A stretch of DNA of 64,000 bases from Patescibacteria group bacterium (lineage in GTDB: Bacteria > Patescibacteriota > Patescibacteriia > JBAZBY01). The stretch spans positions 827,740 to 891,739 of the forward strand of contig JBAZBY010000001.1 in assembly GCA_041671225.1 (NCBI GenBank), in the 5' to 3' direction. The notes beneath the pieces were generated by a model. That model was not told the origin of the DNA and searched no databases. It saw only the letters and a list, made by a program, of their open reading frames with translations. Position 1 is the stretch's first letter. Every line of letters starts with the position of its first letter. The position numbers and the translations under genes were made by a program. Of the stretch, positions 6,156 to 55,528 are shown in pieces.

Positions 6156-7537
6156 CTAGTTACCACTGAAATCGATGGGCGCACCCTCTTTATGGGCGAA
6201 GAGTGCGTTATCCGTTGTATGAATGAGATTTTCCCAGCGCAGACCAAGTGTTTCAAACACAGAAGGGGAAGGAATACCGCGGCGCAGTCCATTGGAGATA
6301 TACCACACTCCATTCGCGTTTGGCGACGTCACAATTTCACCATCACGGAAGTGCACGGGTTCGCCTCGTGTGAATGCATCGATAACATCTTGTTCAACTT
6401 GATTCCAACGCTGCCCGCCAAATTGATTCTTTAAAATTTGCGGGGAATGGATAGCGTGTGCCACTCCATCTTGAACGTGATAAATAGCACCAGTCTGCCT
6501 GGACTGCATAAGCGTTCCACGCGGGTACACACTCTCAAGCGTGATCTTTGTACCATTTTTATATGCGTCAAGTTCTTCCCATGTTGCGCGCTGCAATTCC
6601 TCCGGGTTGAAACCAATATTGCGGAATACCTCGCCAGAAACAATGGCACGCTTGGTGTCATCAACGATCAAATAGACTCCATTGTTTGGCGCCTGCACCA
6701 GGCTGAAATTTGGGAACTTGATTGCTGAACCAAGATCATATTTCTGCAACTCATCTACTGGGACATCAACAACGCGGTTGATGCTGTAGTTAGAAAAGAA
6801 GGCAGACGCGGAGTGGAAAGGATGACGCATCCCATCCTTGATAAGCCAGATGCCGCCTTCACCGCGCGCACGAAGCAAGGCGCCATCAGGGAAGGTGATA
6901 GTGAACCAGCTGTTCCAGATACGCCAGAAGAGCTCATTGCCGTGGAGGTGGGGAGTATAGGTATAGAGCACGGCGGTTGCATTGTTCGCCGGCGTAACAG
7001 TAACACCGTCAACTTCTTTACTTACGCCAGGCTTCCAACCGCTGATGGTAAAACCGCCAGCTTCAAGCGGGTCAAGATACCGCGTGCGGATAGTCCTTGC
7101 CGCATTCCAAATTTGCGCATAGACCCCCGCGTATGCGGGATCACAAGGGCTTGAATCAGGACATCCATACCCCATTGCATAGTTTAAGGCCCGGACACTC
7201 GGCGACGAATCACTAATCAAGGATTGTTCCTTTTGCAGTGTTACCACAAAAAATTGTGGAGAAAGTCGCCATTCCTGCGCAACGGCATAAATAATCTCCG
7301 CAGCGGTCTTTTTACTACCATTAATGACCTGCGTGTAGGTATTTAATACTCCATTTTGAGAATCAAGAAACTGCTGAATACGCTTGATGCTCATGAGCTG
7401 AGTAGGGGAAAGATCCTGATCCTCAATAATGCGGTTTCTATTGAACCCCAAAGCTATACCCTGAAATGGGAATAACATAAGCAGGGTCGCAGTACATACC
7501 AGACCCATAGCGGTTCGTTTGAATCCTTTGTGAAGCA
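6156..7537 (-). CDS. Secreted protein with four ~50-aa internal repeats (possible cell-wall-binding repeats)
   Basis: Signal-peptide-like N-terminus (MGLVCTATLLMLFPFQGIALG). Four repeats of the pattern G-x-[IVW]-[YW]-[LHVI]-[IVH]-x-[DNQ]-G-x-[RA]-[HR]-x-I-x-S-x-x-[VI]-[FL]... in the C-terminal half. No catalytic motif recognised. Start chosen at internal Met 7537; the ORF track extends to 7559. Confidence 0.5.
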
Positions 7538-7612
7538 TTAGAATTATCTTAAGTTGCACACCATAGTATACCTGATTTTGTGCTATACTTCAAGGGTATG
7601 GGTCGCAAAGGA
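7538..7612. promoter_or_regulatory. Divergent promoter region between the secreted-protein gene (minus) and the GT26 gene (plus)
   Basis: Plus strand: extended -10 TGcTATACT at 7581-7589, about 24 nt before the ATG at 7613. Minus strand: TTGAAG-17nt-TATACT (plus coordinates about 7566-7600). Confidence 0.35.
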
Positions 7613-8362
7613 ATGAGCATAAATGGAGTATACATTGACGCGATAACGCGTCCTGATGTGCGCAATACACTGAGGGACTTCCTCCAGGGTACGCGTGCGC
7701 GTCATGTCGTAACAATTAACCCGGAATTTCTTGCCGCAGCAGCTGAGGATGATCAGTTCCGCGCGGATCTCAACAGCGCTGACCTCTCTCTTGCTGATGG
7801 TTTTGGTGTTGTTCTTGCAAGTTTTTTTCTAGGGAAGCGGCTTCCTGCTCGCACAACTGGTCATGATGTTATGCACATGCTTGCTGCACTTTCAGAAGAA
7901 CAAAACGCGAGTATTTTTCTCTATGGTGGATTTGGGAGCCGCGTACACCGCGCCGCTGCCGCGCTCAAAAAGGCATATCCAAAAATAACACTTGTGGGAG
8001 CTGATACGGAACATCGTTTTTGGGGATGGAAGCTACCCGAATGGGCAATACGTCATCGCATTCAACTGGCTGCGCCAGCGATTCTTATTGTGGGGCTTGG
8101 GGCAGGGAAGCAAGAACGTTGGATTCGTCGCAATCTTCCAGACCTGCCTTCGGTAAAAATTGCCGTTGGCGTTGGCGGGGTTTTTGATGTCTGGAGTGGA
8201 GCAGTAGCACGCGCACCACGTGCATTTCAGGTTTTGGGGCTCGAGTGGGCTTGGCGTGTTTTTAAGGAACCGCATCGTGTGCAGCGCATCATAACCGCAA
8301 CTTTACGCTTCCCACTCTCCGTGATACGATTACATTATCGAAAAACACCAGATTTCTTATGA
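7613..8362 (+). CDS. WecB/TagA/CpsF-family (GT26) glycosyltransferase
   Basis: Motifs TINPEF, ADGFGVV, LGAGKQERW, GVGGVFD, GLEWAWR are diagnostic of the WecG/TagA family. Start set at MSINGVYID (7613). Confidence 0.8.
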   Translation: MSINGVYIDAITRPDVRNTLRDFLQGTRARHVVTINPEFLAAAAEDDQFRADLNSADLSLADGFGVVLASFFLGKRLPARTTGHDVMHMLAALSEEQNASIFLYGGFGSRVHRAAAALKKAYPKITLVGADTEHRFWGWKLPEWAIRHRIQLAAPAILIVGLGAGKQERWIRRNLPDLPSVKIAVGVGGVFDVWSGAVARAPRAFQVLGLEWAWRVFKEPHRVQRIITATLRFPLSVIRLHYRKTPDFL

Positions 8363-8847
8363 AAGCTCTCATTATTACGCTCGTTGTTACGGTTGTCCTC
8401 ATCATGATTGGTGGGGCGGTGTATCTTCTGAGTGACGCATTGAATCCGGAGGAGCTTGCCATCAATACGACCATAATAGAAAACACAAATACCGCAGCAC
8501 CAGCAAACATCAATGCCGGTCCAGGCACAACTCCTACTACGTTGACTATGCCTGCGGACTACCCGGCAGATGTTTACCGCCCCTCATCAGTTGAAGTGCT
8601 GAGTGTCAATGTCGGCGCAGATTCTACGACCGTTGGTATGCTGGATATGCGCACTGGTAAAGTTGTTCTTGCAGAACTTCGCGCTGCTATGACGAGCAAT
8701 GCGTGGACTGAAGATTTTGCAGTGAGTGAGGATACCCGTACCTATACCGGAACCTGGACAAAGGGGGGGACGCGAATAACCTTCTTTATGCAGTTAGTGA
8801 ACGAGACGGATGACACGGCAAATACGTCCATTGAATTGACCTATTGA
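8359..8847 (+). CDS. Hypothetical membrane-anchored/secreted protein
   Basis: N-terminal TM or signal anchor (LIITLVVTVVLIMIGGAVYLL), then a T/N/A-rich linker. No recognised domain. Confidence 0.4.
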   Translation: MKALIITLVVTVVLIMIGGAVYLLSDALNPEELAINTTIIENTNTAAPANINAGPGTTPTTLTMPADYPADVYRPSSVEVLSVNVGADSTTVGMLDMRTGKVVLAELRAAMTSNAWTEDFAVSEDTRTYTGTWTKGGTRITFFMQLVNETDDTANTSIELTY

Positions 8848-9980
8848 TGTGGCGGGAAATTCAGGGCATTGCAATGCTCTCAGGCACCATCCTCGGTGTC
8901 GGCATTTTTAGTCTTCCATACCTCCTCCATGCCGTGGGGCTTATTCCTATGTTCGGCCTTTTTGCCGTGCTTGCAGGCCTTATTCTTTTTTTGCAACGCG
9001 CCGTAGGGCATATGGTAGCAAATACCGAAGGGACGCATCTCATTCCGGGATATATTGGCAAGTTTCTCGGTTCAGGTGGAAAGTTTCTTTCGTTCTTCAC
9101 GTCGCTCTTTGGACTTCTTTTTGCAATGGTCGCGTATCTGATCGTGGGCGGCGTGTTTCTTGCGGATCTTTTTCAAAACTCAATCGAGATTTCACCAATA
9201 TGGTGGGCCGGCGTCATGTTCATCCTTGGTGGGTATTTTATCCTTCGTGGAGCGCGCACTGTTGCGCGCGTCGAACTCCTCTTCCTTGGACTTTTTCTTA
9301 TCCTTTTTCTTTTACTCGGTGCATTCGGTTTCTCCGCATTTGACGCTTCGCGTTTGCCAGCGACATTCGTTGATAATCCCTTCCTTGCCTTTGGCGGAAT
9401 TTTATTTGCAATGTGGGGTATGGCGGTGATTCCTGAACTCAAGCGTATTCTGGGGTCTGATGAAAAGCGCATCAAACGTGTCATCACCATCAGTTTTTTG
9501 CTCACGCTTTTCATGAGCATTTCATTTATGGTGCTTATCGCCGGCATCACGGGAACAGAAACAACAGATGACTCGCTCACCGGCTTGCAGGGGATTCTCG
9601 ATTCTAAGGTCATCTCTCTCGTGTTCATCTTTGGTTTTATTGCCGTATTCACATCATATATGAGTCTTGGCGTGACCCTGCGCGATGCAATGCATTATGA
9701 TTTTCATATTCCATGGTCAGCAAGCTTCCTTATTGCTGCGGTGCTGCCTTTCTTCCTCTACTTCCTCGGTATTACGTCACTCATTGGGGTTATTTCACTT
9801 TCCGGAATCATCTTCTTGGCAGCAGAGGGTGTTCTCTTAAGTCTTACATTGATTCGTTATTATGGTGAGCACCGCGGGAGGTTCATGCACTTCCAGCAGT
9901 TCCTTTTGGTTGTCATCATGGTGGCATTATTGATAGGCGCTTCACTCGCATTACGAGATTATATGAGTATGGACGTATGA
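8844..9980 (+). CDS. Polytopic membrane transporter (amino-acid-permease-like)
   Basis: About 11 predicted TM helices. N-terminal GTILGVGIFSLPY resembles the G-x-G-I-L-x-LP motif of the aromatic/AAAP amino-acid permease families. Family assignment tentative. Confidence 0.45.
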   Translation: MMWREIQGIAMLSGTILGVGIFSLPYLLHAVGLIPMFGLFAVLAGLILFLQRAVGHMVANTEGTHLIPGYIGKFLGSGGKFLSFFTSLFGLLFAMVAYLIVGGVFLADLFQNSIEISPIWWAGVMFILGGYFILRGARTVARVELLFLGLFLILFLLLGAFGFSAFDASRLPATFVDNPFLAFGGILFAMWGMAVIPELKRILGSDEKRIKRVITISFLLTLFMSISFMVLIAGITGTETTDDSLTGLQGILDSKVISLVFIFGFIAVFTSYMSLGVTLRDAMHYDFHIPWSASFLIAAVLPFFLYFLGITSLIGVISLSGIIFLAAEGVLLSLTLIRYYGEHRGRFMHFQQFLLVVIMVALLIGASLALRDYMSMDV

Positions 9981-11431
9981 AGAAATATCGGGTGCGCTTT
10001 GCACCATCACCGACCGGAGAGCTGCATGTTGGGAGCGCGCGTACGGCCCTTTATGATTATCTTCTTGCAAAACAAAGTGGAGGCGCCTTTGTTCTGCGCA
10101 TAGAAGATACAGACCAGCAGCGGTTGGTTGAGGGCGCACAAGAACGTATTTTTGAATCACTGCATTGGCTTGATATTGATCCTGATGAAGGGCCAGAACA
10201 AGGCGGTCCTTATGCTCCCTATGTGCAATCAGAACGTAAAAAGCACTACCAACAGGCAGCACAGGAACTCATTAATAAAGGCGCCGCGTACAAGTGTTTT
10301 TGCACCACGGAGCATTTGGAGCAGTTGCGCGCGGAACAACAAAAAGCAAAACAACCGCCGCGTTATGACAAACACTGTCTCGCGCTTTCTCCGGATGAGG
10401 CTGCAAAAAAACAGAGGGCTGGCGAGTCGTTTGTTGTACGGCTCAACGTGCCAGAAGAGGGGAGTACCTCCTTTGTCGATAAAATCCGTGATGTCGTGGA
10501 ATTTCAAAACAAGGAAATTGATGATTCTATACTGCTGAAGTCTGACGGGTTCCCCACCTATCATCTCGCTGTTGTGGTTGACGACCATGCAATGGAAATC
10601 AATCTTGTTGTGCGTGGCGAAGAATGGATCCCCTCAACGCCAAAACATTTATTACTCTATAAAGCATTCGGCTGGAAGCCGCCAGAATACGCGCATGTGC
10701 CGCAGCTTCTTGCAAAGGATAGATCAAAACTTTCAAAGCGGCATGGCGCCGTTTCAGTGCAGGAGTTTCAAAGGCAGGGTATTCTTCCCGAGGCGCTCGT
10801 GAACTACATGGCATTTCTTGGTTGGAACCCAGGAGACGAACGAGAAATTTTTTCTCTGGAGGAACTCGTGAAGGAATTTTCACTCGATCGCGTCATGAAA
10901 GGTGGTGCGATTTTTGATGAAGAAAAACTGCATTGGATAAATGGACTCTACATACGCAAACTCTCCAGTGAAGAACTTGCAACGCTTGTTATGCCATACC
11001 TCACTGAAGTCTTTAAGGCAGGGGATATAGCACGGTGTGATATGCAGAAGGCGGTTATTGCCGTACAAGATAGACTTGAAAAGCTTTCTGACGCCCCACA
11101 GCTCATGGATTTCTTTTTTGTCGCGCCACGGGATATCCCGCAAGATCTCCTTATTCATAAGAAACTCGATAGCACACAAGCAGAAAGCGGTCTTCGCTTT
11201 GCGCACAAGACACTCGCAGGACAAACGAGCGTTACGAATGCGGCAGCGCTTAAAGAAATATTCATGGGCGCCATAGAGACAGCAGGGCTCACTGTTATGC
11301 AGGTACTTTGGCCGATGCGCGTTGCGCTCACGGGCAAAAAGGCTTCACCAGATGTTTTTGATGTTACAGCAGCGCTTGGCAAAGAAGAAAGTCTGGCGCG
11401 CATCACAAATGCGCTTGGGCTATTGCCTTAA
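9977..11431 (+). CDS. gltX: Glutamyl-tRNA synthetase
   Basis: RFAPSPTGELHVGSARTALYDY (HIGH region) and KLSKR (KMSKS) motifs. Confidence 0.95.
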   Translation: MKKYRVRFAPSPTGELHVGSARTALYDYLLAKQSGGAFVLRIEDTDQQRLVEGAQERIFESLHWLDIDPDEGPEQGGPYAPYVQSERKKHYQQAAQELINKGAAYKCFCTTEHLEQLRAEQQKAKQPPRYDKHCLALSPDEAAKKQRAGESFVVRLNVPEEGSTSFVDKIRDVVEFQNKEIDDSILLKSDGFPTYHLAVVVDDHAMEINLVVRGEEWIPSTPKHLLLYKAFGWKPPEYAHVPQLLAKDRSKLSKRHGAVSVQEFQRQGILPEALVNYMAFLGWNPGDEREIFSLEELVKEFSLDRVMKGGAIFDEEKLHWINGLYIRKLSSEELATLVMPYLTEVFKAGDIARCDMQKAVIAVQDRLEKLSDAPQLMDFFFVAPRDIPQDLLIHKKLDSTQAESGLRFAHKTLAGQTSVTNAAALKEIFMGAIETAGLTVMQVLWPMRVALTGKKASPDVFDVTAALGKEESLARITNALGLLP

Positions 11432-11483
11432 TGTCAAAAACATGGTATATTACGTGACTGCGTGATATACTCTATACACAGGC

Positions 11484-12788
11484 ATGAAACAAAAGCAGTA
11501 CAATCACATATTCAAACACCCCAGGGATTGGGCGCATCTCATGCTTTATGCTGGAGTTGTTTTTGCCGTGCTTGGCGGAATAACGCTTGGATCATTCACC
11601 AATGGAGCCGCAGAAGCGCAGTCAGTGGCAGAAGGCCTCCAAGAGCTCAATCGAGAACTTGCTGATAAACGAAGCGAAATTCAGAGTATTGAGGATCAGC
11701 AGAAGGTATACAAAAAAACCGTTGAGGCAAAGCAAAACGAACAGCGAACATTGAATAATGAAATCGAAATTCTTGAGAGTGAGATTGCTTCAACCGAACT
11801 TGAGACGCAGCGCACAAAGCTGGAAATTGATTCCCTGAAGCTGGAAATTGAGAAGACGCAGGAAGAAATCCGCGGCCTTGCAGATGAGATTCTCACGAAT
11901 AAGGAACAGCTTTCTGAATTTGTGCAGCTCGCATACCGCAACTCACAAAAAACATATCTTGAAATAGCATTGCTGAACGATTCCTTCTCTGAATTTGTCC
12001 GTCAGGCAAAATACACTGAGAGTATTGAGGGACAAATGAAAAAGAGCCTTGATCGCTATAAAACCCTCAAGGGTGAGCAAGAAGCAAAGCAAGCAAGTCT
12101 TGAGGCAGGGAAGCAGGATTTGGAAGCACAGCAAAAGGCCCTTGCTGCCCAGCAAATTGCGCTGGATGAACAGTCTCAATATAAAGAAGCATTACTTGAT
12201 GAATCTCTTGTAACCGAAGAGAAGTATCAGGAACTCCTTAATCAGCTGCAAACAGAGCAGAACCGTGTTAACTCAGAGATATTCACCATTGAGAACCGAG
12301 TTCGTCAGCGCCTTGAAGAAGAAGGCGGCGACCCGCTTGAATCACTCGGTGAGCCAATTTTTGCATGGCCGGTTATGGCACTGCGTGGCATTTCAGCATA
12401 TTTCCATGACCCAAGTTATCCGTATCGCAGTATTTTCGAACATCCAGCCATTGATATCCCAGCGCCGCATGGCACAGCACTCAAAGCCGCGGCAGACGGC
12501 GTTGTTGCTATTGCACGCAATCTTGATTGGAAATCCATCAACGGTGTGAAGGTTTCCGCATACAACTACGTTACTATTCTTCACGGGGATGGTTTTTCTA
12601 CGGTCTATGGTCATATGAGTCGTATTGATGTTGCAGAAGGACAATACGTCACGCAAGGGCAGGTCATTGGTACAATAGGTGGAACACCAGGCACCGCAGG
12701 GGCAGGCACGCTCACAACAGGACCACATCTTCACTTTGAAGTGCGCATCAATGGATTTCCTGATGATCCGTTGAAGTACTTGCCATAA
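11484..12788 (+). CDS. M23-family metallopeptidase with N-terminal coiled coil (EnvC-like murein hydrolase/activator)
   Basis: N-terminal TM helix, about 250 aa of heptad-rich coiled coil, C-terminal M23 domain (HGTALKAAADGVV...GTGPHLHFEVRING). Confidence 0.85.
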   Translation: MKQKQYNHIFKHPRDWAHLMLYAGVVFAVLGGITLGSFTNGAAEAQSVAEGLQELNRELADKRSEIQSIEDQQKVYKKTVEAKQNEQRTLNNEIEILESEIASTELETQRTKLEIDSLKLEIEKTQEEIRGLADEILTNKEQLSEFVQLAYRNSQKTYLEIALLNDSFSEFVRQAKYTESIEGQMKKSLDRYKTLKGEQEAKQASLEAGKQDLEAQQKALAAQQIALDEQSQYKEALLDESLVTEEKYQELLNQLQTEQNRVNSEIFTIENRVRQRLEEEGGDPLESLGEPIFAWPVMALRGISAYFHDPSYPYRSIFEHPAIDIPAPHGTALKAAADGVVAIARNLDWKSINGVKVSAYNYVTILHGDGFSTVYGHMSRIDVAEGQYVTQGQVIGTIGGTPGTAGAGTLTTGPHLHFEVRINGFPDDPLKYLP

Positions 12789-12793
12789 CTTGT

Positions 12794-12828
12794 CCGCCGA
12801 AGCTGTGAAGCGGCGGTGGAATATTTTG
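12794..12828 (+). terminator. Intrinsic terminator after the M23 peptidase gene
   Basis: CCGCCG-aagctgtgaag-CGGCGG hairpin followed by tggaaTATTTTG. Confidence 0.4.
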
Positions 12829-12842
12829 CGACACATAATTTC

Positions 12843-13098
12843 TTATCCCCCTGTGCGAGTAGGGGAGTTTTGACGATGATTGACAGGAAATATCATCTGC
12901 GTTTATATAGATGTGCCTGATGATGTTGGCCGTCAGGTGTCAGATGCGTGCCGCAACGGCAACAGCTGGCCCATAACGCCAACGCCAGGTCCCGGGACGG
13001 ATCGCAGTCTCCTAAGAGGAGTGTTCTACGGAAGCAGTAGAGATCGAAGCGTGAGGCTCACCGTCCCGGGCTCTACACTCCCTTACTAGAGGGGATAA
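12843..13098 (+). ncRNA. Candidate structured ncRNA of about 255 nt; family unresolved (RNase P RNA or SRP/other to be tested)
   Basis: No ORF. 5' UUAUCCCC (12843-50) pairs perfectly with 3' GGGGAUAA (13091-98). A nested second helix pairs UAGGGGAG with CUCCCUUA. Internal hairpins GAUGAU...AUCAUC and CUCCUaagAGGAG. A 10-bp long-range helix pairs GUCCCGGGACGG with CCGUCCCGGGCUC. An intrinsic terminator follows immediately. Confidence 0.4.
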
Positions 13099-13105
13099 AG
13101 AAAGA

Positions 13106-13130
13106 CCCGCATTCAGCGGGCTATTGTTTT
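13106..13130 (+). terminator. Intrinsic terminator immediately 3' of the candidate ncRNA
   Basis: CCCGC-auuca-GCGGG hairpin followed by CUAUUGUUUU. Confidence 0.5.
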
Positions 13131-13138
13131 GATATATA

Positions 13139-13242
13139 GGCGTCGCACAATATACCTTTAGCGACGCAAGGTTTCTGTATTATTTCAGAAAAGACCCTTT
13201 ATGCGTTTTATAGGTGCCGCCGTCTTTCGTCGCTAAAGGTAT
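13139..13242. repeat. Inverted repeat (14-15 bp arms, 61 bp spacer) plus a local 7-bp hairpin
   Basis: ATACCTTTAGCGACG (13152-13166) is the reverse complement of CGTCGCTAAAGGTAT (13228-13242). The first arm is also part of a local GCGTCGC...GCGACGC hairpin. A 12-mer GTCGCACAATAT occurs at 13142 and again at 13422, directly abutting the ridA -35 box. Confidence 0.4.
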
Positions 13243-13435
13243 GAAGATGGCAAGGTATAAGAAAAGATATCAGGAAAGCAAAGTCATTACAGCATCATAA
13301 GATTAAATTCTCGAGATAACCTATACCAAGTTACCCCCTCCTGCCGTATCTCAGGTATTGATACTTATCTTTTGATCCAAACTCTACCTCCCCTCTTCAA
13401 AGAAGACAAGCGAGTCTATGTGTCGCACAATATTA

Positions 13436-13464
13436 TTGACGAAAAGTAAAGAAACTCATAAAAT
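13436..13464 (+). promoter_or_regulatory. Sigma-70-type promoter for ridA
   Basis: TTGACG-17nt-TAAAAT. A strong SD (AAGGAGA at 13501-13507) sits 7 nt upstream of the ATG at 13515. Confidence 0.45.
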
Positions 13465-13514
13465 GCGCACGAGTCATCTCATTTTGTTGACCTTTTCGGC
13501 AAGGAGACAAGGCT

Positions 13515-13919
13515 ATGCCTAGGAAAGAGATCCCGCCGCAAGCAGCAAAGCTAAAGGTGGTGGGGCCGTACTCAACAGTCGTGAAGTTCGGGGATGAGTA
13601 CCAATTCTCCGGCATTCTTCCGGAGATCGACCCTCAGAACGGTCATCCGATGGCGTTGGACTTCGAGACGCAGGTTCGGCAGGTGCTCGAGAAAGCGCGC
13701 ACGATGCTCGAGATCTGCGGACTCACACCCAACGACCTCTGGAAGGTGGATATCCGCTACATCGGCGAGATGGAGGAGTTCGCCACGCTCAACGCACTCT
13801 ACCGGGAGTTTCTGGAGGGAGTTGAGATCGCGCCGGCGCGCGTGGCCCTTCCGAAGCGCTGGATTCTGTTCGACGCCAAGATCGAGATCTGGTTCACGGC
13901 CGTGAAACAGACCACCTGA
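13515..13919 (+). CDS. ridA: RidA/YjgF/TdcF-family reactive-enamine/imine deaminase
   Basis: 134 aa matching the Rid family over its full length (GPYSTVVKFGDEYQFSGILPEIDPQNG...PARVALPKRWILFDAKIEI). Noticeably higher GC and different codon preference than neighbouring genes. Confidence 0.85.
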   Translation: MPRKEIPPQAAKLKVVGPYSTVVKFGDEYQFSGILPEIDPQNGHPMALDFETQVRQVLEKARTMLEICGLTPNDLWKVDIRYIGEMEEFATLNALYREFLEGVEIAPARVALPKRWILFDAKIEIWFTAVKQTT

Positions 13920-13954
13920 TTCGGTGGTGCCGGCCTGATCTGGCAACGTTCGTA

Positions 13955-13994
13955 CACCCTCCCTGGTTCCTCGGGGAGGGTGCTTTATTTATAT
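13955..13994 (+). terminator. Strong intrinsic terminator after ridA (possibly bidirectional)
   Basis: CACCCUCCC-ugguuccuc-GGGGAGGGUG followed by CUUUAUUUAUAU. An A-rich tract on the other side could serve the convergent minus-strand operon. Confidence 0.6.
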
Positions 13995-13998
13995 ATGC

Positions 13999-14337
13999 CT
14001 ATACAAAAGGGTTTGGAATGAATGGAAACGTCAGCGAGACAAGGTAGAGAAAAATGAGAATGCCAACAACAAGTGACGCAGCAGATGGGCCATTGTCCGG
14101 CTGCATCACAGAATTGCCGCGCTTGAGATGTGAAAGACTTTTTGAGCCTAAACTTAAACTAAGAAGAAAAATGAACCCGAAAAAAACGAGCCCAAAAACA
14201 ATGAAAAGATAATCACCATGCTTTGCTTCTTCCAGGTAACCGGAAATGATGAGATAAAGCGAAAGAATGCTCGACCCAAGCCATGAAACAGTGGAAATAA
14301 TGCGAATATTTCGTACTGATGAGGAAGATGTAAGCAT
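13999..14337 (-). CDS. Small hypothetical membrane protein (2-3 TM)
   Basis: 112 aa, hydrophobic segments, no recognised motif. Starts 12 nt downstream of ftsQ. Confidence 0.4.
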   Translation of the reverse strand: MLTSSSSVRNIRIISTVSWLGSSILSLYLIISGYLEEAKHGDYLFIVFGLVFFGFIFLLSLSLGSKSLSHLKRGNSVMQPDNGPSAASLVVGILIFLYLVSLTFPFIPNPFV

Positions 14338-14348
14338 ATAGAGCGTAT

Positions 14349-15407
14349 TTACTGATAATATACTCTCTCTCCAAAACGAATATCGACGTACGTCAGGTTG
14401 CGGCCGGTAAAGAAGCCCTCATGCACAAGCCGCTCTAGCTTTGCGAGTTGTTGATCCAGATTCTGATTTGAAAAGCGTATTTGGAAACTTTCTGTCTGTG
14501 CATACACTGTGCGGGTATTACGCGCAAGCTCTTCTTCACTGCACTCTGGCTCAGGCGGCGTAATGTTGACGTTCACGCGTGCATTGGTATTCATATTCGT
14601 TTCCTTATCAGTTGTTTCTTCCTCATTTTCCACCGTGGCATCGGCAGTTACTGATTCAGCATCTTCTTCTGGCACTTCCTCAAGCAATATCGCACACGAA
14701 ACCTCAGGGATCTGATACGCAGACGCAGACAAACTAAGCTCAGTGAACTTCGCATCCGCAGTAAGCACGGTTTGTGGCGTTTCTTGAATGATCGCAACTT
14801 GCCCAATTTCCACCGGGAAATCGTTGAGGTCAATGATATTCGGCTTGCTTGCCAGCTCTGCAGGAGGGTTTGCTGTGTCAAAAATGAGTTCCTGCACAAT
14901 AACGCCTTCTGCGTCGAGCAGATATGTTGTACCCGCAGTTGTCCAAAGCAATTCCGGTTCACGCTCCACAATCGTCACAATAAGTTCATTGGGGAACTTC
15001 TTTTGCACCTGCACATCCTCAAGCGCAATGGTCTCCCCTACTCGGGCGAGTAATTCTTCCGCCAAATATTTTTTGTTCAGTGTGAGATATTTATCCCGCT
15101 TCAAAAACAACCATGTGCGGCTTGAGAGGATATCCTGCGCAGTGCCTTCAATGAATTCCGGGTTTGCGCGGTTAATCCCCTGCACCGTGAGTTCCAGCTG
15201 AAATGAACGGTCATACGAAAACAAATAAAAAAGCCCAAGCGCAATAACAAACATTCCTGCCCCAACAAACAAACGAGATGAGACAACGCGCTCCTCGCCA
15301 CTATGCTCACGGTGAAAATACGGGTTCTCTTCCGGAGCCGGGGTGGAGGTGAAGCGTCGCTGCGTGTGCACACGGCGCCGCGGTCTGCGGTTAAACGGCC
15401 ACGTCAT
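14349..15407 (-). CDS. ftsQ: Cell division protein FtsQ/DivIB (POTRA domain)
   Basis: Basic cytoplasmic N-terminus, single TM (LFVGAGMFVIALGLFYLF), POTRA-like region (LTLNKKYLAEELLARVGETIALEDVQVQKKFPNELIVTIVEREPELLW). Conserved ddl-ftsQ order. Confidence 0.65.
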   Translation of the reverse strand: MTWPFNRRPRRRVHTQRRFTSTPAPEENPYFHREHSGEERVVSSRLFVGAGMFVIALGLFYLFSYDRSFQLELTVQGINRANPEFIEGTAQDILSSRTWLFLKRDKYLTLNKKYLAEELLARVGETIALEDVQVQKKFPNELIVTIVEREPELLWTTAGTTYLLDAEGVIVQELIFDTANPPAELASKPNIIDLNDFPVEIGQVAIIQETPQTVLTADAKFTELSLSASAYQIPEVSCAILLEEVPEEDAESVTADATVENEEETTDKETNMNTNARVNVNITPPEPECSEEELARNTRTVYAQTESFQIRFSNQNLDQQLAKLERLVHEGFFTGRNLTYVDIRFGERVYYQ

Positions 15408-50092: not shown

Positions 50093-51880
50093 CTAAAGAT
50101 GCGCAACCTCACCCGGATGCAGCATGTGCTCGGCCGGAGGGTGTTGCCTTGTATGATTCTTATTGCGTCGTGAGCGATTATTCCGATCCTCATTACGGCC
50201 ATCGCTTTGTTGGCGAATATTCTGCTGCTGTGGACGCTCTTGTGATTGCCGACCCTGTTGTTCATGCCCACGCTGCTGCGACGCTTGTTGATTTGGCTCT
50301 CGCCTCTTTTGGTCATGCCGCGGCGGCCTATTGCTGCCCTTGAATGAAACCGTGTGGGAACCCAGTGCATCCGCGAGACTCACTGCCGGACCAGTATCCA
50401 CCACTACGGGTTGCTCCTCATGCGCTCTCTGTGTGAAGTCCGGTTGTTCACGCTTCTCTTCTCTTTTTGGGCGGTCATTATGATTTGATCTGCTCGCGTT
50501 GCTTGACCAAGGGGTACGTTGCTGCTCACGGGGCCGCTCAGTACTGCGGTCACCGCCAGCAGTGACACCTTGTTCTTTCATCATCTCCTGCAATCCTGAC
50601 CAACGTATGATTTTATCTTCAACAACACTGCGTGGTTGTCCATAGCGTTCTCGAGAGACCTTAATCACCTTATCTGCATGTCCGGACTTGTTGTGCAGTG
50701 GTGGCAAGGTTAACGCAGAAAAAGGAGAAGATGAAACTCCATCGATCATCAACTTCAGATAAACATTATATTTGGTAAGGTTCACAAGATCATCTTCTGT
50801 AAACGTTGGAGTGAATTCCTTCACAAGTTCCTCGGCATCGTTCGCTCCAACACGAAACACCACCATAGAACCAACGTTACCGAATACTGCCGCTGAAACT
50901 GTTTCATCCAGCTGTTCAATATACTGATGCGCAATGATAAGATTCAAACGATACTTACGTGCTTCTGAGAGAATCGCAGCAAAGCTTTCTGTGGCAAAGT
51001 TCTGAAATTCATCAACATAAAGATAAAAATCTTTTCGCTCCTCTTCAGGAGTATCAATTCGACTCATGGCAGCGAGCTGCAATTTTGTGATAAGCATCGC
51101 ACCAAGCAATGATGAGTTATCCTCGCCAACACGCCCCTTTGAAAGGTTAATGAGAATGATCTTTCTATTGTCCATCGCCTCGCGTAAGTCAATAGAGCTC
51201 TTTGATTGCCCAACAATATTCCTAATAATTGCGGAGGAAAGAAATTGACCAACCTTATTCTGAATTGGGGAGATTGCTTCTGTTCGAAATTTATCTGAGT
51301 ATGCGGCATATTCATCCACCCAGAAAGACCTCACAATAGGATCGGAAATATGGGAGACAATTTTCTCGCGATACTTCTTGTCTACAAGCAAGCGAGTCAC
51401 ACCAAGAAGCGTGGAACCGGGATTTTCCAAGAGTGCAAGAATCGTATTGCGCAAAACATATTCGAGTCGTGGTCCCCAGGAGTCCACCCATATTTTCTTG
51501 AAGACGCCGATGAGTCCTGAAGCAATAAGATATCGATGTGTTTCATCAACTGCTTCAAGTACGTTAAACGCAAACGGATAATCAATATCTGCAGGGTTAA
51601 AGTAGACAACATCATTAATGCGATTTTGGGGAATGTAATTCAGTAAACGCTCAACAGTATCACCATGAGGATCAACAATAGCAATCCCTTCACCATTATG
51701 AATATCCTGCACCATCATATTCTCCAGCACAGTGGACTTACCCATACCCGTCTTCCCGATAAGGTACATATGACGGCGACGGTCATCACGTTTAATACCG
51801 AACAACCTCCACATATTGCGGAAGTTTGTTCGTCCAAAAGTGACGATAGAATCCTGTGCTGGTTCAAAATCTACTGCCAT
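50093..51880 (-). CDS. HerA/FtsK-superfamily P-loop ATPase (DUF87-like) with ~180-aa disordered Q/R/E-rich C-terminal tail
   Basis: Walker A (RRRHMYLIGKTGMGKST), then IAIVDPHGD as in HerA/DUF87. Walker B (FYLYVDEFQNF). ARKYRLNLIIAHQYIEQL resembles the R-K-x-G...ATQ motif of VirB4/TraG/HerA ATPases. No TM segments. Start at MAVDFEP (51880). Confidence 0.65.
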   Translation of the reverse strand: MAVDFEPAQDSIVTFGRTNFRNMWRLFGIKRDDRRRHMYLIGKTGMGKSTVLENMMVQDIHNGEGIAIVDPHGDTVERLLNYIPQNRINDVVYFNPADIDYPFAFNVLEAVDETHRYLIASGLIGVFKKIWVDSWGPRLEYVLRNTILALLENPGSTLLGVTRLLVDKKYREKIVSHISDPIVRSFWVDEYAAYSDKFRTEAISPIQNKVGQFLSSAIIRNIVGQSKSSIDLREAMDNRKIILINLSKGRVGEDNSSLLGAMLITKLQLAAMSRIDTPEEERKDFYLYVDEFQNFATESFAAILSEARKYRLNLIIAHQYIEQLDETVSAAVFGNVGSMVVFRVGANDAEELVKEFTPTFTEDDLVNLTKYNVYLKLMIDGVSSSPFSALTLPPLHNKSGHADKVIKVSRERYGQPRSVVEDKIIRWSGLQEMMKEQGVTAGGDRSTERPREQQRTPWSSNASRSNHNDRPKREEKREQPDFTQRAHEEQPVVVDTGPAVSLADALGSHTVSFKGSNRPPRHDQKRREPNQQASQQRGHEQQGRQSQERPQQQNIRQQSDGRNEDRNNRSRRNKNHTRQHPPAEHMLHPGEVAHL

Positions 51881-51881
51881 G

Positions 51882-53321
51882 TTATGCGATAGGGAGATTA
51901 TCTGGCGGTGCCGCCGATGTATCTTCTGAAGGAACGCTGTGCTCACTCGCGGCTGCCGCTCGTTCTTCAAGGGTTGCTGGAAGTACCGTACCTTCAAACT
52001 GCTCTTCTTCTGTTAGATCTTCTTCAACCGTTGGAAGTGAAACAGGCGGCTCTGATTTCTTTGCATCTGTCTTCTTCACGAGAGGCGCCTTCACGGTCAT
52101 TACTGGGAAATGAAATATACTTGCAAGCTCTTCTGTATTCAGCACAAAAGGATATGGACCTACATCCATATCACGATCACGATATGCACTGATGAGTTTA
52201 TTCTTCTTCACTGTTTTGCGCGCATCGGCGCGCCAATATTTCGCCGATGTCTTGGTCTTCTTATCAGTTTTAAAACCGTTGGACTCTAATGTATTGTACT
52301 GCAGCATGCCCCCAATAACGGTAGCAGGACGGTCATCTTGAAAAACCTTTTTTTTGGCAGCATACACAAGACGGATCTTTGTCTCATATGCATACTTGGA
52401 AAGCTTAATGCCAATCTGCTCAACGATACGCCGCTCATGCGGCGGAAGGTGTTGCATGAGGGATTCAGGTCCGCTATCTTTGCTTGAACTTGAATCCTGA
52501 TCAGGCGGAATAATGGATGCAATAAGCGTCTGCCATGTTCCAGAGGCTATATCCTGCCCGGCAGTCAGAATACCTCCACCACCGCTACTACTCTTTGCAC
52601 CGATGAGCTTCTTGATGGCGCGAAGGCCATTTTCGCGCCATGTTTCATCTTCTGGCGGACGGATGACAAACTGAAGCCAAAACTGCTCTCCCCGGCGAAG
52701 ACGAGAAAGAATTTCAAGCAATGAAGCGAGTGGATCTAAAAATGTCTGTGTCAATGTGTGTTCAAAGACAGGGTACGTCACAATAGGAAAGTACTCTTTG
52801 TTATCCAATTTTAATTCTGTTCCCCAGATATCCCATTCACGATCCGGAAAACGACGAGGGATATCATCAACATAATCCTCTACTTCGGTGATCTCCGCAT
52901 TCGGGTACTGCGCGTAAAAAACTGCCTCAACCATATCACGGAACTTACTCGGAACTCGAACAATGAACTGCACATAGCCGCCAAGACTCACTATCTCAAA
53001 TGAAAGCGGCTGCTGTGTGTATCCCTTCCACCAGCGATCAATAAGATCGCCATTCTTCTTGATGGTGGCGAGATGGTTAAAAATATGCTCCACGGCCTTG
53101 GGTGTCTGTTCATTATCCTTTGGAATATCAATGGCAAGGAGAACCCACTTAATGCTCTGTCGATATGTTTCCTGGCGGTTACGAACAAAAATCACAGCAG
53201 CGCCAACGGCAGCAAGAACGACAAAAAACGCCCAGCCTCCACGCGCAATGAGGAGCCAAGTGATCGAAAAGGGATTGAAGTCCCCTGTATTTAGAAATGT
53301 TGAGAGACCCCCGGTTTCCAT
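51882..53321 (-). CDS. Single-pass membrane protein of unknown function (partner of the HerA-like ATPase)
   Basis: N-terminal TM (WAFFVVLAAVGAAVIFV). About 430-aa soluble part with S/G-rich and K-rich low-complexity linkers and an acidic C-terminal tail. No recognised domain. One nucleotide separates it from the ATPase gene. Confidence 0.45.
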   Translation of the reverse strand: METGGLSTFLNTGDFNPFSITWLLIARGGWAFFVVLAAVGAAVIFVRNRQETYRQSIKWVLLAIDIPKDNEQTPKAVEHIFNHLATIKKNGDLIDRWWKGYTQQPLSFEIVSLGGYVQFIVRVPSKFRDMVEAVFYAQYPNAEITEVEDYVDDIPRRFPDREWDIWGTELKLDNKEYFPIVTYPVFEHTLTQTFLDPLASLLEILSRLRRGEQFWLQFVIRPPEDETWRENGLRAIKKLIGAKSSSGGGGILTAGQDIASGTWQTLIASIIPPDQDSSSSKDSGPESLMQHLPPHERRIVEQIGIKLSKYAYETKIRLVYAAKKKVFQDDRPATVIGGMLQYNTLESNGFKTDKKTKTSAKYWRADARKTVKKNKLISAYRDRDMDVGPYPFVLNTEELASIFHFPVMTVKAPLVKKTDAKKSEPPVSLPTVEEDLTEEEQFEGTVLPATLEERAAAASEHSVPSEDTSAAPPDNLPIA

Positions 53322-54631: not shown

Positions 54632-55528
54632 TTATGCTGTCCCTTTTCTACGCGCCCAAATTACAAGTAACGGCCCCGCAATGTAAATAGATGAATATGT
54701 ACCAACGGCAATACCAATACCTAAAACGAGAACAAAATATCGAATACTTTCCCCCCCAAAAAGAAACAACGCACCCAAAACAAGTAAGGCTGTTAGTGAA
54801 GTATTGATGGATCGGATAAGTGTTTCATTTAATGAAATATTCATAACTGAAGAGAATGTTTCATTTCCATACTTTCGAAGATTTTCACGAACACGATCAT
54901 AAACAACAATAGTGTCATGCACTGAAAATCCTAAGATTGTCAAAAGTGCAGTGATAAATAATGTATCCGCCTCTAACCCTATATATGCACCGAGTACCGC
55001 ATACAATCCAAGTGGTATGAGAATATCATGTATAAGCGCGATAATCGCACCAACACCATAAAACCACGCAGGTACCGGTCCAGCAGATACTTTTCGAAAT
55101 GCCCACGTTATATAAAGGATAATACCCGTAAGCACTGCACCAATTGCAATGAGAGCTTTTTTCTGCAATTCACCTCCAATTGTTGATCCAATCGAAGAAA
55201 AACTTTTTTCATCAATTTGACCATATGATTCGCGTAGTGATTCAATCAGTATTTCCTTTTCATTATTTGAGAGTGATGTCAACCGAATGAAAACATCATT
55301 ATCACCAGAAGGTTGCACGCGTACCTCAGTAATATCTTGCGCTATAATTACCTGTTCAAGAATTCCCACATCAGGTCGCTCATCTAAAAAACGTATGTGT
55401 AATAGACTTCCCCCCGTAAAATCAATACCCGGGGTAATGCCCCAAATGATCAATGCGAGGATTGCGAGAAGTACAAGGCTCGCTGAGAATCCAAGAGTAA
55501 ATTTTTGCCAACGAATAAAATCAATCAT
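54632..55528 (-). CDS. secF: Protein translocase subunit SecF
   Basis: GIDFTGGSLL and SecF TM topology. Confidence 0.9.
   Translation of the reverse strand: MIDFIRWQKFTLGFSASLVLLAILALIIWGITPGIDFTGGSLLHIRFLDERPDVGILEQVIIAQDITEVRVQPSGDNDVFIRLTSLSNNEKEILIESLRESYGQIDEKSFSSIGSTIGGELQKKALIAIGAVLTGIILYITWAFRKVSAGPVPAWFYGVGAIIALIHDILIPLGLYAVLGAYIGLEADTLFITALLTILGFSVHDTIVVYDRVRENLRKYGNETFSSVMNISLNETLIRSINTSLTALLVLGALFLFGGESIRYFVLVLGIGIAVGTYSSIYIAGPLLVIWARRKGTA

Follow-up and report, generated by a model that had tools for sequence, protein, structure and literature searches.

The ridA cassette, its product and its signals

Within a 64,000-nt stretch of the chromosome of a Patescibacteria group bacterium (contig JBAZBY010000001.1; "the window" in what follows), positions 13436 to 13994 hold ridA, a small detoxification-type gene of the Rid family that lies with its own expression signals in the slot between the gene for an M23 peptidase and ftsQ. 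It is the last plus-strand gene at a convergent junction, and a minus-strand run begins at 13999. Further plus-strand genes lie at 460-2311 and at 7580-12788 (WecG, a 162-aa open reading frame (ORF), a permease, GltX and the M23 peptidase), so that ridA is not the only plus-strand gene within a minus-strand array of ~60 kb, as the first-pass annotation had described it. The non-coding repeat tract that this annotation placed upstream is present, as 726 bp with repeats between the M23 gene and ridA. We consider it probable, at roughly three chances in four, that ridA is a horizontally acquired, self-contained monocistronic accessory gene, because its composition is atypical, its translation signals are of a foreign style (a clear Shine-Dalgarno (SD) sequence), it is absent from the same slot in relatives and its homologues are sparse and non-syntenic. 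The suggestion of a probable horizontal acquisition, made when the sequence was first read, is upheld on these grounds. The following features make up the junction:

13436-13464, plus strand: sigma-70-type promoter-like site, TTGACG-17-TAAAAT, matching at 10/12 positions, in an AT-rich context; its -35 box follows a dif-like half-site (half-site e, below)
13501-13506, plus strand: Shine-Dalgarno sequence AAGGAG, 8 nt before the ridA ATG
13515-13919, plus strand: coding sequence for a RidA-family protein of 134 aa, which belongs to a small Rid subfamily (pattern 'MPKK...AVKQD') and is divergent within it
13955-13992, plus strand: intrinsic terminator; hairpin at 13955-13982 with 12 bp (8 G-C) and a 4-nt loop, then T-rich CTTTATTTAT
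13999-14337, minus strand: 112-aa predicted membrane ORF, 11 nt downstream of ftsQ and converging on ridA; GC content at third codon positions (GC3) 0.39, host-like

The ORF at 13515-13919 (+) matches Pfam PF01042 over residues 12-130 (60.8 bits against a gathering cutoff of 27.3, E 1.6e-16). The same protein scores 54.6 bits against NCBIfam TIGR00004, below the archetypal RidA threshold of 106.25, and 39.7 bits against NF008490, again below the cutoff (222). Because its score is only half the TIGR00004 cutoff, we file the predicted product as a Rid-family protein that keeps the catalytic arginine, not as an archetypal RidA. Members of the Rid family (RidA / YjgF / YER057c / UK114) are enamine/imine deaminases, archetypal RidA forms homotrimers with active sites between the subunits, and the active-site arginine (the equivalent of E. 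coli R105) is needed for RidA deaminase activity. In a 12-sequence alignment of the subfamily, R109 (of the PAR motif) and E124 are invariant, and both align with the RidA active site. The closest PDB entry is 2dyy, Pyrococcus PH0854 (E 5e-16), whose 'PARVA' aligns with the 'PARVA' arginine motif of the window protein; identity to any solved structure is at most 37%. A model built with AlphaFold 2 from the 12 subfamily sequences had a mean predicted local distance difference test score (pLDDT) of 94.1 and a predicted template modelling score (pTM) of 0.87, and its top Foldseek matches were 2dyy, 1x25, 2uyj and 1qu9, with probability 1.00 and template modelling (TM) scores of 0.76-0.86. In this model the predicted monomer has the chorismate-mutase-like alpha/beta fold of RidA/YjgF. 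By analogy with characterised members of the family, the protein is most likely a trimeric enamine/imine (2-aminoacrylate) deaminase that would protect pyridoxal phosphate (PLP) enzymes. Two further ORFs inside ridA, an antisense one of 124 aa and one of 103 aa in an alternative frame, gave no Pfam match and were treated as by-products of high GC.

The promoter, the strong SD and the terminator that had been credited to the gene at first reading all stand up, with some qualification for the promoter. The region has no excess of promoter-like matches (2, against 3.4 expected from shuffles), and therefore only the position of TTGACG-17-TAAAAT counts as evidence; it leaves ridA a leader of ~45 nt from the predicted -10 box. 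AAGGAG is the longest SD-like match among the 53 ORF starts of the window, and a 5-mer is found at only 2/52 of the others. The terminator hairpin has 12 pairs, where 9/10 bp had been given. As for the rest of the window, most genes are SD-less, and at many of them a box reading TATACT or TATACC, in some cases TGCGTGATATAC, precedes the start codon by 5-12 nt (for example upstream of 11484, 3672(-), 7559(-), 20936(-), 57195(-) and 62028(-)). This arrangement suggests that the organism normally makes mRNAs with no leader or a very short one.

The composition of ridA was compared with that of the 52 other long ORFs of the window. The gene has a GC content of 0.588 against 0.470 for the window and a GC3 of 0.793 against 0.433 +/- 0.043 for the other ORFs (maximum 0.546; z = +8.3), and the log-likelihood of its fit to the synonymous codon usage of the window lies at z = -5.8. 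GAG is used 13 times and GAA not at all, ATC 8 times and ATT twice, TTC 6 times and TTT once; CCG, GCG and ACG are also favoured. The earlier description of ridA as a GC-rich gene with codons ending in C or G is thus confirmed, and the gene remains an outlier when both GC and codon usage are surveyed across the 64 kb. The GC-rich tract, ~13510-13985, comprises the ORF and the terminator, and the promoter segment is AT-rich. High expression does not explain the anomaly in this host, because the ribosomal-protein, RpoA and IF-1 genes of the window have an ordinary GC3 of 0.43-0.47.

Short discordant inserts can arise in metagenome assemblies, and ~500 bp of a GC-rich organism might in this way have been joined into the contig. 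We regard such a chimera as scarcely credible, given that the identical protein and neighbourhood are found on Logan, JGI, NCBI and ENA contigs, including 88-kb and 1.03-Mb ones, that host sequence lies on both sides of the insert, and that promoter, SD and terminator fit the ORF precisely.

Two other places in the window are compositionally unusual. The SecF gene, 54632-55528 (-), is a low-GC outlier (GC 0.388, GC3 0.264, z = -3.9), and the adjoining gene for a fusion of SecD with a peptidyl-prolyl isomerase (PPIase) is ordinary. A gene at 50093-51997 (-) encodes a 634-aa protein with TrwB/VirD4-type coupling-protein and HerA-like domains, and the 3' part of the gene falls on the segment 50001-50500, which ranks second in GC (0.552).

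The slot in relatives and the Rid subfamily

A scan of the genome collection with Ddl returned relatives at no more than 50% identity, among them no true sister genome. Several of these relatives, including Candidate Phyla Radiation (CPR) and Buchananbacteria loci, keep the order GreA-AspS-HD-SerS-Alr-Ddl-FtsQ / M23-GltX-permease-WecG, and none of the syntenic ones has a RidA homologue. Five distant CPR loci (L005, L032, L045, L054 and L074) have GreA-AspS-SerS-Ddl...M23-GltX, and L016 has the same order as far as M23. A scan of metagenomes with FtsQ gave no match, and a protein search with FtsQ led to three closer relatives, listed here with the identity of their FtsQ to that of the window; the proteins of their flanking genes share 61-76% identity with those of the window:

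L082: FtsQ 61%; P-loop kinase gene in the slot; the contig stops 17 nt beyond a dif-like site and does not reach the M23 side
L083: FtsQ 51%; the slot holds two ORFs of 124 aa and 162 aa, with no assigned identity; both flanks kept
L084: FtsQ 49%; the slot holds a 57-aa DUF2188 gene; both flanks kept

The content of the slot differs among these three loci and the six distant CPR loci just named, and RidA is in none of them. Nor do 150 further loci with the 28-bp site described below hold a RidA homologue. Because L082, L083 and L084 each hold different genes there, the slot between ftsQ and M23 is variable. In relatives the genes that occupy it are also of odd composition or led by an SD, as in the 124-aa ORF of L083 (GC3 0.71 against ~0.54 for its host, SD GAGGAGG). 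In L083 a dif-like half-site, CATGTGTCGTACAATATT, is followed by one A and then by the ftsQ stop codon. In the window, the distance from the corresponding half-site (13417-13434) to the ftsQ stop (14349-14351) is ~913 nt and holds the ridA cassette and the 112-aa ORF. L083 in this way shows an empty-site configuration of the slot. The comparison between the M23 peptidase gene and ftsQ that had been proposed for sister genomes therefore finds ridA absent from every syntenic relative, all of them distant.

For the 112-aa ORF we found neither a family match nor a homologue in the relatives' loci, which makes it lineage-specific. Because its composition is host-like and it lies 11 nt downstream of ftsQ, it is probably an addition separate from and older than ridA. 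A pair of direct repeats flanking the cassette, 13497-13512 and 14029-14044, matches at 13/16 positions and was judged to be due to chance. A separate observation concerns the Ddl protein of the window, which is 47-50% similar to proteins of Ignavibacteriota, Bacteroidota and Chlorobi, about as similar as it is to those of CPR (loci L002-L081), a hint that ddl has an old history across phyla.

Homologues of RidA are likewise distant. An exhaustive HMMER search, which covered 1.84e9 representatives standing for ~15e9 proteins, gave a best non-self homologue of 45% identity, and a word-indexed protein search with RidA alone gave matches of 33-34%. A profile search gathered a subfamily of ~15 clusters with the pattern MPKK...GPYS..IGNHFHFSG...CGLT...P.R.A..V..LP....IEI.F.AVKQD. 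Its named members are assigned to 'Patescibacteria group', Falkowbacteria and Edwardsbacteria, and a Woesebacteria protein lies further out. The other members are mutually 50-58% identical, and the window protein forms a long branch at 34-45%. In each genome with readable DNA the subfamily gene stands in a different neighbourhood. This patchy, non-syntenic distribution fits a putative mobile accessory gene and suggests that exchange has mostly taken place within CPR. Because the nearest named homologues are Patescibacteria, ridA is probably foreign to its lineage and not to the phylum as a whole. The check on RidA's nearest relatives that had been proposed at first reading is in this sense answered in part: the nearest homologues, where named, belong to Patescibacteria, the best match of all is 45% identical, and no donor came to light. 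Many better matches to RidA (for example P0012, P0017 and P0018) are proteins of ~380-460 aa with three tandem Rid domains, that is, single-chain 'trimers', and one protein with three Rid domains is annotated from Planctomycetota.

An SD is clear in all seven subfamily genes that could be read, their neighbours being mostly SD-less. Their GC3 values compare with those of neighbouring genes as follows:

Window: subfamily gene GC3 0.79, neighbours 0.43, excess +0.36
L090: subfamily gene GC3 0.84, neighbours 0.38, excess +0.46; genes within 7454-9078
L243: subfamily gene GC3 0.71, neighbours 0.22, excess +0.49; gene 926-1312
L241: subfamily gene GC3 0.48, neighbours 0.23, excess +0.24; gene 48-443
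L086: subfamily gene GC3 0.54, neighbours 0.36, excess +0.17
L085: subfamily gene GC3 0.585, neighbours 0.45, excess +0.13
L088: subfamily gene GC3 0.41, neighbours 0.49; not GC-enriched

At L090, a 171-aa ORF upstream of the Rid gene shares the anomaly (GC3 0.62, SD GAGGAGG). The recurrent GC-rich state would have one of two causes: either frequent transfers from unsampled GC-rich sources, or something that keeps the gene GC-rich.

The second of these causes has a counterpart in the view that ridA is not recently foreign and could be a long-resident gene: gene-specific selection or biased gene conversion would maintain GC-rich third positions and an SD in this subfamily, in whichever genome it occurs. 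The GC3 excess in six of seven genomes and the strong SD in all seven speak for it, as do copies that are mutually only 34-58% identical and searches that found no GC-rich donor. We nevertheless judge it improbable. None of the relatives has the gene in the slot, no homologue above 45% occurs in the collection that holds the relatives' assemblies, and the gene context differs in every genome. Moreover, the GAG to GAA ratio of 13:0, together with CCG, GCG and ACG, looks like GC mutational bias and not like translational optimisation, highly expressed genes of the window show no rise in GC3, and the L088 member is not GC-enriched.

Several observations weigh against horizontal acquisition all the same. 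In the databases searched we found neither a close homologue of RidA nor a donor, and for this reason we infer the transfer from composition and distribution only; within the plasmid and phage collections nothing exceeded 35% identity and no vector was found. GC3 is above that of the neighbours in six of the seven subfamily genes although these are mutually only 34-58% identical, and their shared GC3 and SD state could be a gene-specific property rather than the outcome of seven recent transfers. GC1 (0.60) and GC2 (0.37) of ridA are not raised. The compositional background is narrow, being a 64-kb window out of a 1.03-Mb genome. Finally, the nearest relatives are distant, with flanking genes at 49-76% amino acid identity, and the closest of them, L082, is seen on one side of the slot.

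A probable dif site beside ridA

The tract upstream of ridA contains a near-palindromic 28-bp element, three arm-like half-sites and a candidate RNA module:

12820-12837, minus strand: half-site a, TATGTGTCGCAAAATATT; forms an 18-nt inverted repeat with half-site e at a distance of 579 nt and with 94% complementarity
12880-13130, plus strand: candidate small-RNA module; TTGACA-18-TATATA (12880-12909), ~200 nt structured, terminator at 13106-13120
13140-13167: 28-bp 11-6-11 site, GCGTCGCACAA / TATACC / TTTAGCGACGC, near-palindromic; probable dif (Xer) site
13224-13242, plus strand: half-site d, inverted copy of the site's right half; 19-nt inverted repeat with 13152-13170
13417-13434, plus strand: half-site e, TATGTGTCGCACAATATT; dif-like left arm and partial centre (TAT), ending 1 nt before the RidA -35 box

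Exact arm 9-mers of the site occur only between 12.8 and 13.45 kb of the window. The 28-bp site is found at the same slot in eight syntenic relatives, and half-site d also occurs in L083 and 8 other loci. Loci that carry the full site include L010, L032, L045, L074 and L082-L084. An exact-pattern scan located single copies in at least 120 metagenome stretches and in 30 contigs classed as 'viral' (L091-L240), and the site is widespread in CPR-type contigs. The consensus of 145 copies is ATGTCGCACAA TATATC TTTTACGACAT (as a whole, ATGTCGCACAATATATCTTTTACGACAT), and conservation stops sharply at the 28-bp edges. Its context was counted at the 29 loci that extend 2.5 kb or more in both directions: the neighbouring genes converge on the site at 19/29, it is intergenic at 24/29, and GC skew falls across it at 20/29. 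In the window, cumulative G-C peaks at 14343; masking the cassette moves the peak to 13278, and the two positions are 0.1-1.2 kb from the site. M23, GltX, MurG, FtsW and a 336-aa protein without known identity are recurrent neighbours. The orientation of the site differs among relatives. No recombinase gene stands beside it across the loci compared, and no recombinase or integrase gene was found in the 64-kb window. At dif sites, XerC/D-type tyrosine recombinases act under the control of FtsK. These features of sequence and context suggest that the element most likely serves as the dif site of the chromosome, at the replication terminus, with putative binding by Xer; since both arms are near-palindromic copies of one type, a single recombinase is suggested to act on it. 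In the searchable literature we found no description of a CPR dif site.

On low-GC contigs (~31%), the same site is associated with modules of 5-6 kb that encode a filamentous-phage Rep G2P (PF23343) and Zot (PF05707). These inovirus-like modules lie between a hybrid site and a full site in direct orientation (L236, 2619-8514; similarly L228, L233, L237 and L239), the hybrid being conserved in its left arm and centre and degenerate in its right arm. From their arrangement they look like prophages of low-GC hosts of the type of integrative mobile elements exploiting Xer (IMEX). In distant relatives, an ORF-free spacer of ~270-350 nt separates a conserved half-site from the full site (L032 12913-13185, L045 12053-12399, L010 2228-2562). 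These spacers start purine-rich, GGGG..AAGAGGAG, and relatives have no conserved small ORF between half-site and full site.

The candidate small-RNA module lies in a stretch, 12824-13165, that shares 94.5% identity with the end of L082 (5641-5980) over 343 nt, with a core at ~98-99%, compared with ~70% nucleotide identity for the flanking genes. The module is inverted relative to ftsQ between the window and L082, and in the window it is bounded by the 18-nt inverted half-sites (12820-12837 / 13417-13434). Its predicted fold has a minimum free energy (MFE) of -84 kcal/mol, a moderate z of -2.6. It was absent from L083 and L084 and, in an nhmmer search, from 150 other loci with the 28-bp site, and its core gave no match in viral contigs. 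We see it as a possible small RNA of this lineage, or else as a piece of a module that was recently exchanged or can invert. A 69-aa ORF within it gave no Pfam match and was treated as a by-product of high GC.

The first-pass annotation had read ridA as a foreign gene placed beside a non-coding RNA (ncRNA) locus, in the manner of an integration hotspot. Spelled out, this would be an integrase-mediated genomic island next to a structured RNA gene, whether a tRNA, a tmRNA or another ncRNA. The module gives this some substance, as a promoter- and terminator-bounded structured stretch of ~200 nt (12880-13130) that lies 300 nt upstream and is near-identical in one relative. However, Rfam gave only chance-level matches, both for the whole window at gathering thresholds and for 12700-14100 at E <= 10, and ARAGORN found neither tRNA nor tmRNA in the 64 kb, where an integrase is missing too. 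In addition, the dif-like site and two half-sites separate the module from ridA, the module is absent from other site-bearing loci, and a direct repeat of an RNA 3' end flanking the cassette was not found. We therefore regard such an island as highly improbable. The ncRNA locus of the annotation is not supported, which leaves a candidate stretch with promoter and terminator; its integration hotspot survives, of a terminus/dif type instead of an ncRNA type.

The position of half-site e raises a different question, namely whether the cassette was captured by Xer-type recombination at this adjoining half-site, as a minimal IMEX-like cargo. This is a rival on mechanism and compatible with a horizontal origin. 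Half-site e ends 1 nt before the -35 box, and the empty site of L083 puts the junction within the following ATT. Furthermore, the Rep-G2P/Zot modules of other CPR-type contigs sit between hybrid and full site, and four related lineages each have an atypical small gene, a different one in every case, no more than a few hundred nucleotides from these sites. Set against this, the window has no second site to the right of ridA and no recombinase gene, the order of full site and half-site e is opposite to that in the prophages, and the half-site is ancestral to the clade and was not made by this insertion. On balance, capture by Xer is unlikely.

An extended form of this idea would make the ftsQ/M23 junction a multi-site Xer recombination region at the terminus that captures promoter-to-terminator cassettes, with a 'travelling' Rid subfamily moving between CPR genomes. 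We hold this to be doubtful. If it were true, it would mean a hitherto undescribed, phylum-wide 28-bp dif with conserved half-sites and a segment of lineage-dependent orientation carrying a lineage-specific small RNA, and a Rid subfamily so often moved or constrained that GC-rich codons and an SD persist in AT-rich, SD-poor hosts.

A proposed history and comparison with known systems

Returning to horizontal acquisition, which we prefer, we propose that a unit with its own SD, ORF and intrinsic terminator arrived by horizontal transfer. It would have landed in a hypervariable slot at the convergent junction of ftsQ and M23-gltX of a CPR chromosome, beside the probable dif site, and ridA would be driven by the promoter-like site at the insertion junction. 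The source, which we infer together with direction and timing, would be a GC-richer organism, possibly another CPR lineage. An acquired moron-like cassette belongs to a known class and is unsurprising in kind. Even so, ridA would be a clean marker of gene flow into a streamlined lineage thought to have little metabolic flexibility, and the occurrence of GC-rich, SD-led genes of one Rid subfamily in unrelated CPR hosts is something that a simple single-transfer story does not explain. The probable CPR dif site would in turn mark the replication terminus in fragmentary metagenome-assembled genomes (MAGs), and it appears to be used by inovirus-like prophages.

Among known systems, the closest in layout are the morons of lambdoid phages, which are independent promoter-gene-terminator units of atypical composition inserted between genes. 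ridA is likewise a single gene between a sigma-70-type promoter-like site and an intrinsic terminator, with a composition unlike that of its neighbours. Unlike a moron, it lies outside any prophage, with no phage genes within 10 kb, in a chromosomal slot beside a dif-like site.

That site invites comparison with IMEX, which include the gonococcal genetic island and, from Vibrio, CTXphi and VGJphi; dif is where filamentous phages integrate. The likeness consists in an 11-6-11 site beside ridA, in the same site flanking Rep/Zot modules elsewhere together with a hybrid, and in a cassette that starts at the edge of a half-site. The ridA cassette differs in that it does not lie between two sites and has no replication or morphogenesis genes, and the half-site is older than the insertion.

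With respect to the Rid proteins (E. coli/Salmonella RidA, TdcF and Pyrococcus PH0854), the window protein shares PF01042, the predicted fold and the aligned R109 and E124. It differs in reaching half of the TIGR00004 cutoff and in its membership of a rare subfamily, marked by distinctive sequences at both termini (MPKK..., ...AVKQD), within which it is the most divergent protein.

Finally, the dif sites of E. coli (GGTGCGCATAATGTATATTATGTTAAAT) and B. subtilis serve here as a lead and not as a test. Like them, the CPR site has 28 bp arranged as 11-6-11, an A/T-rich central hexamer, an inner arm CGCA(C/T)AA and a single copy, and it lies at a skew switch between convergent genes. In contrast to them, both of its arms follow a single arm type in a near-palindromic layout, additional half-sites are found 60-600 bp away, and its orientation varies among relatives.

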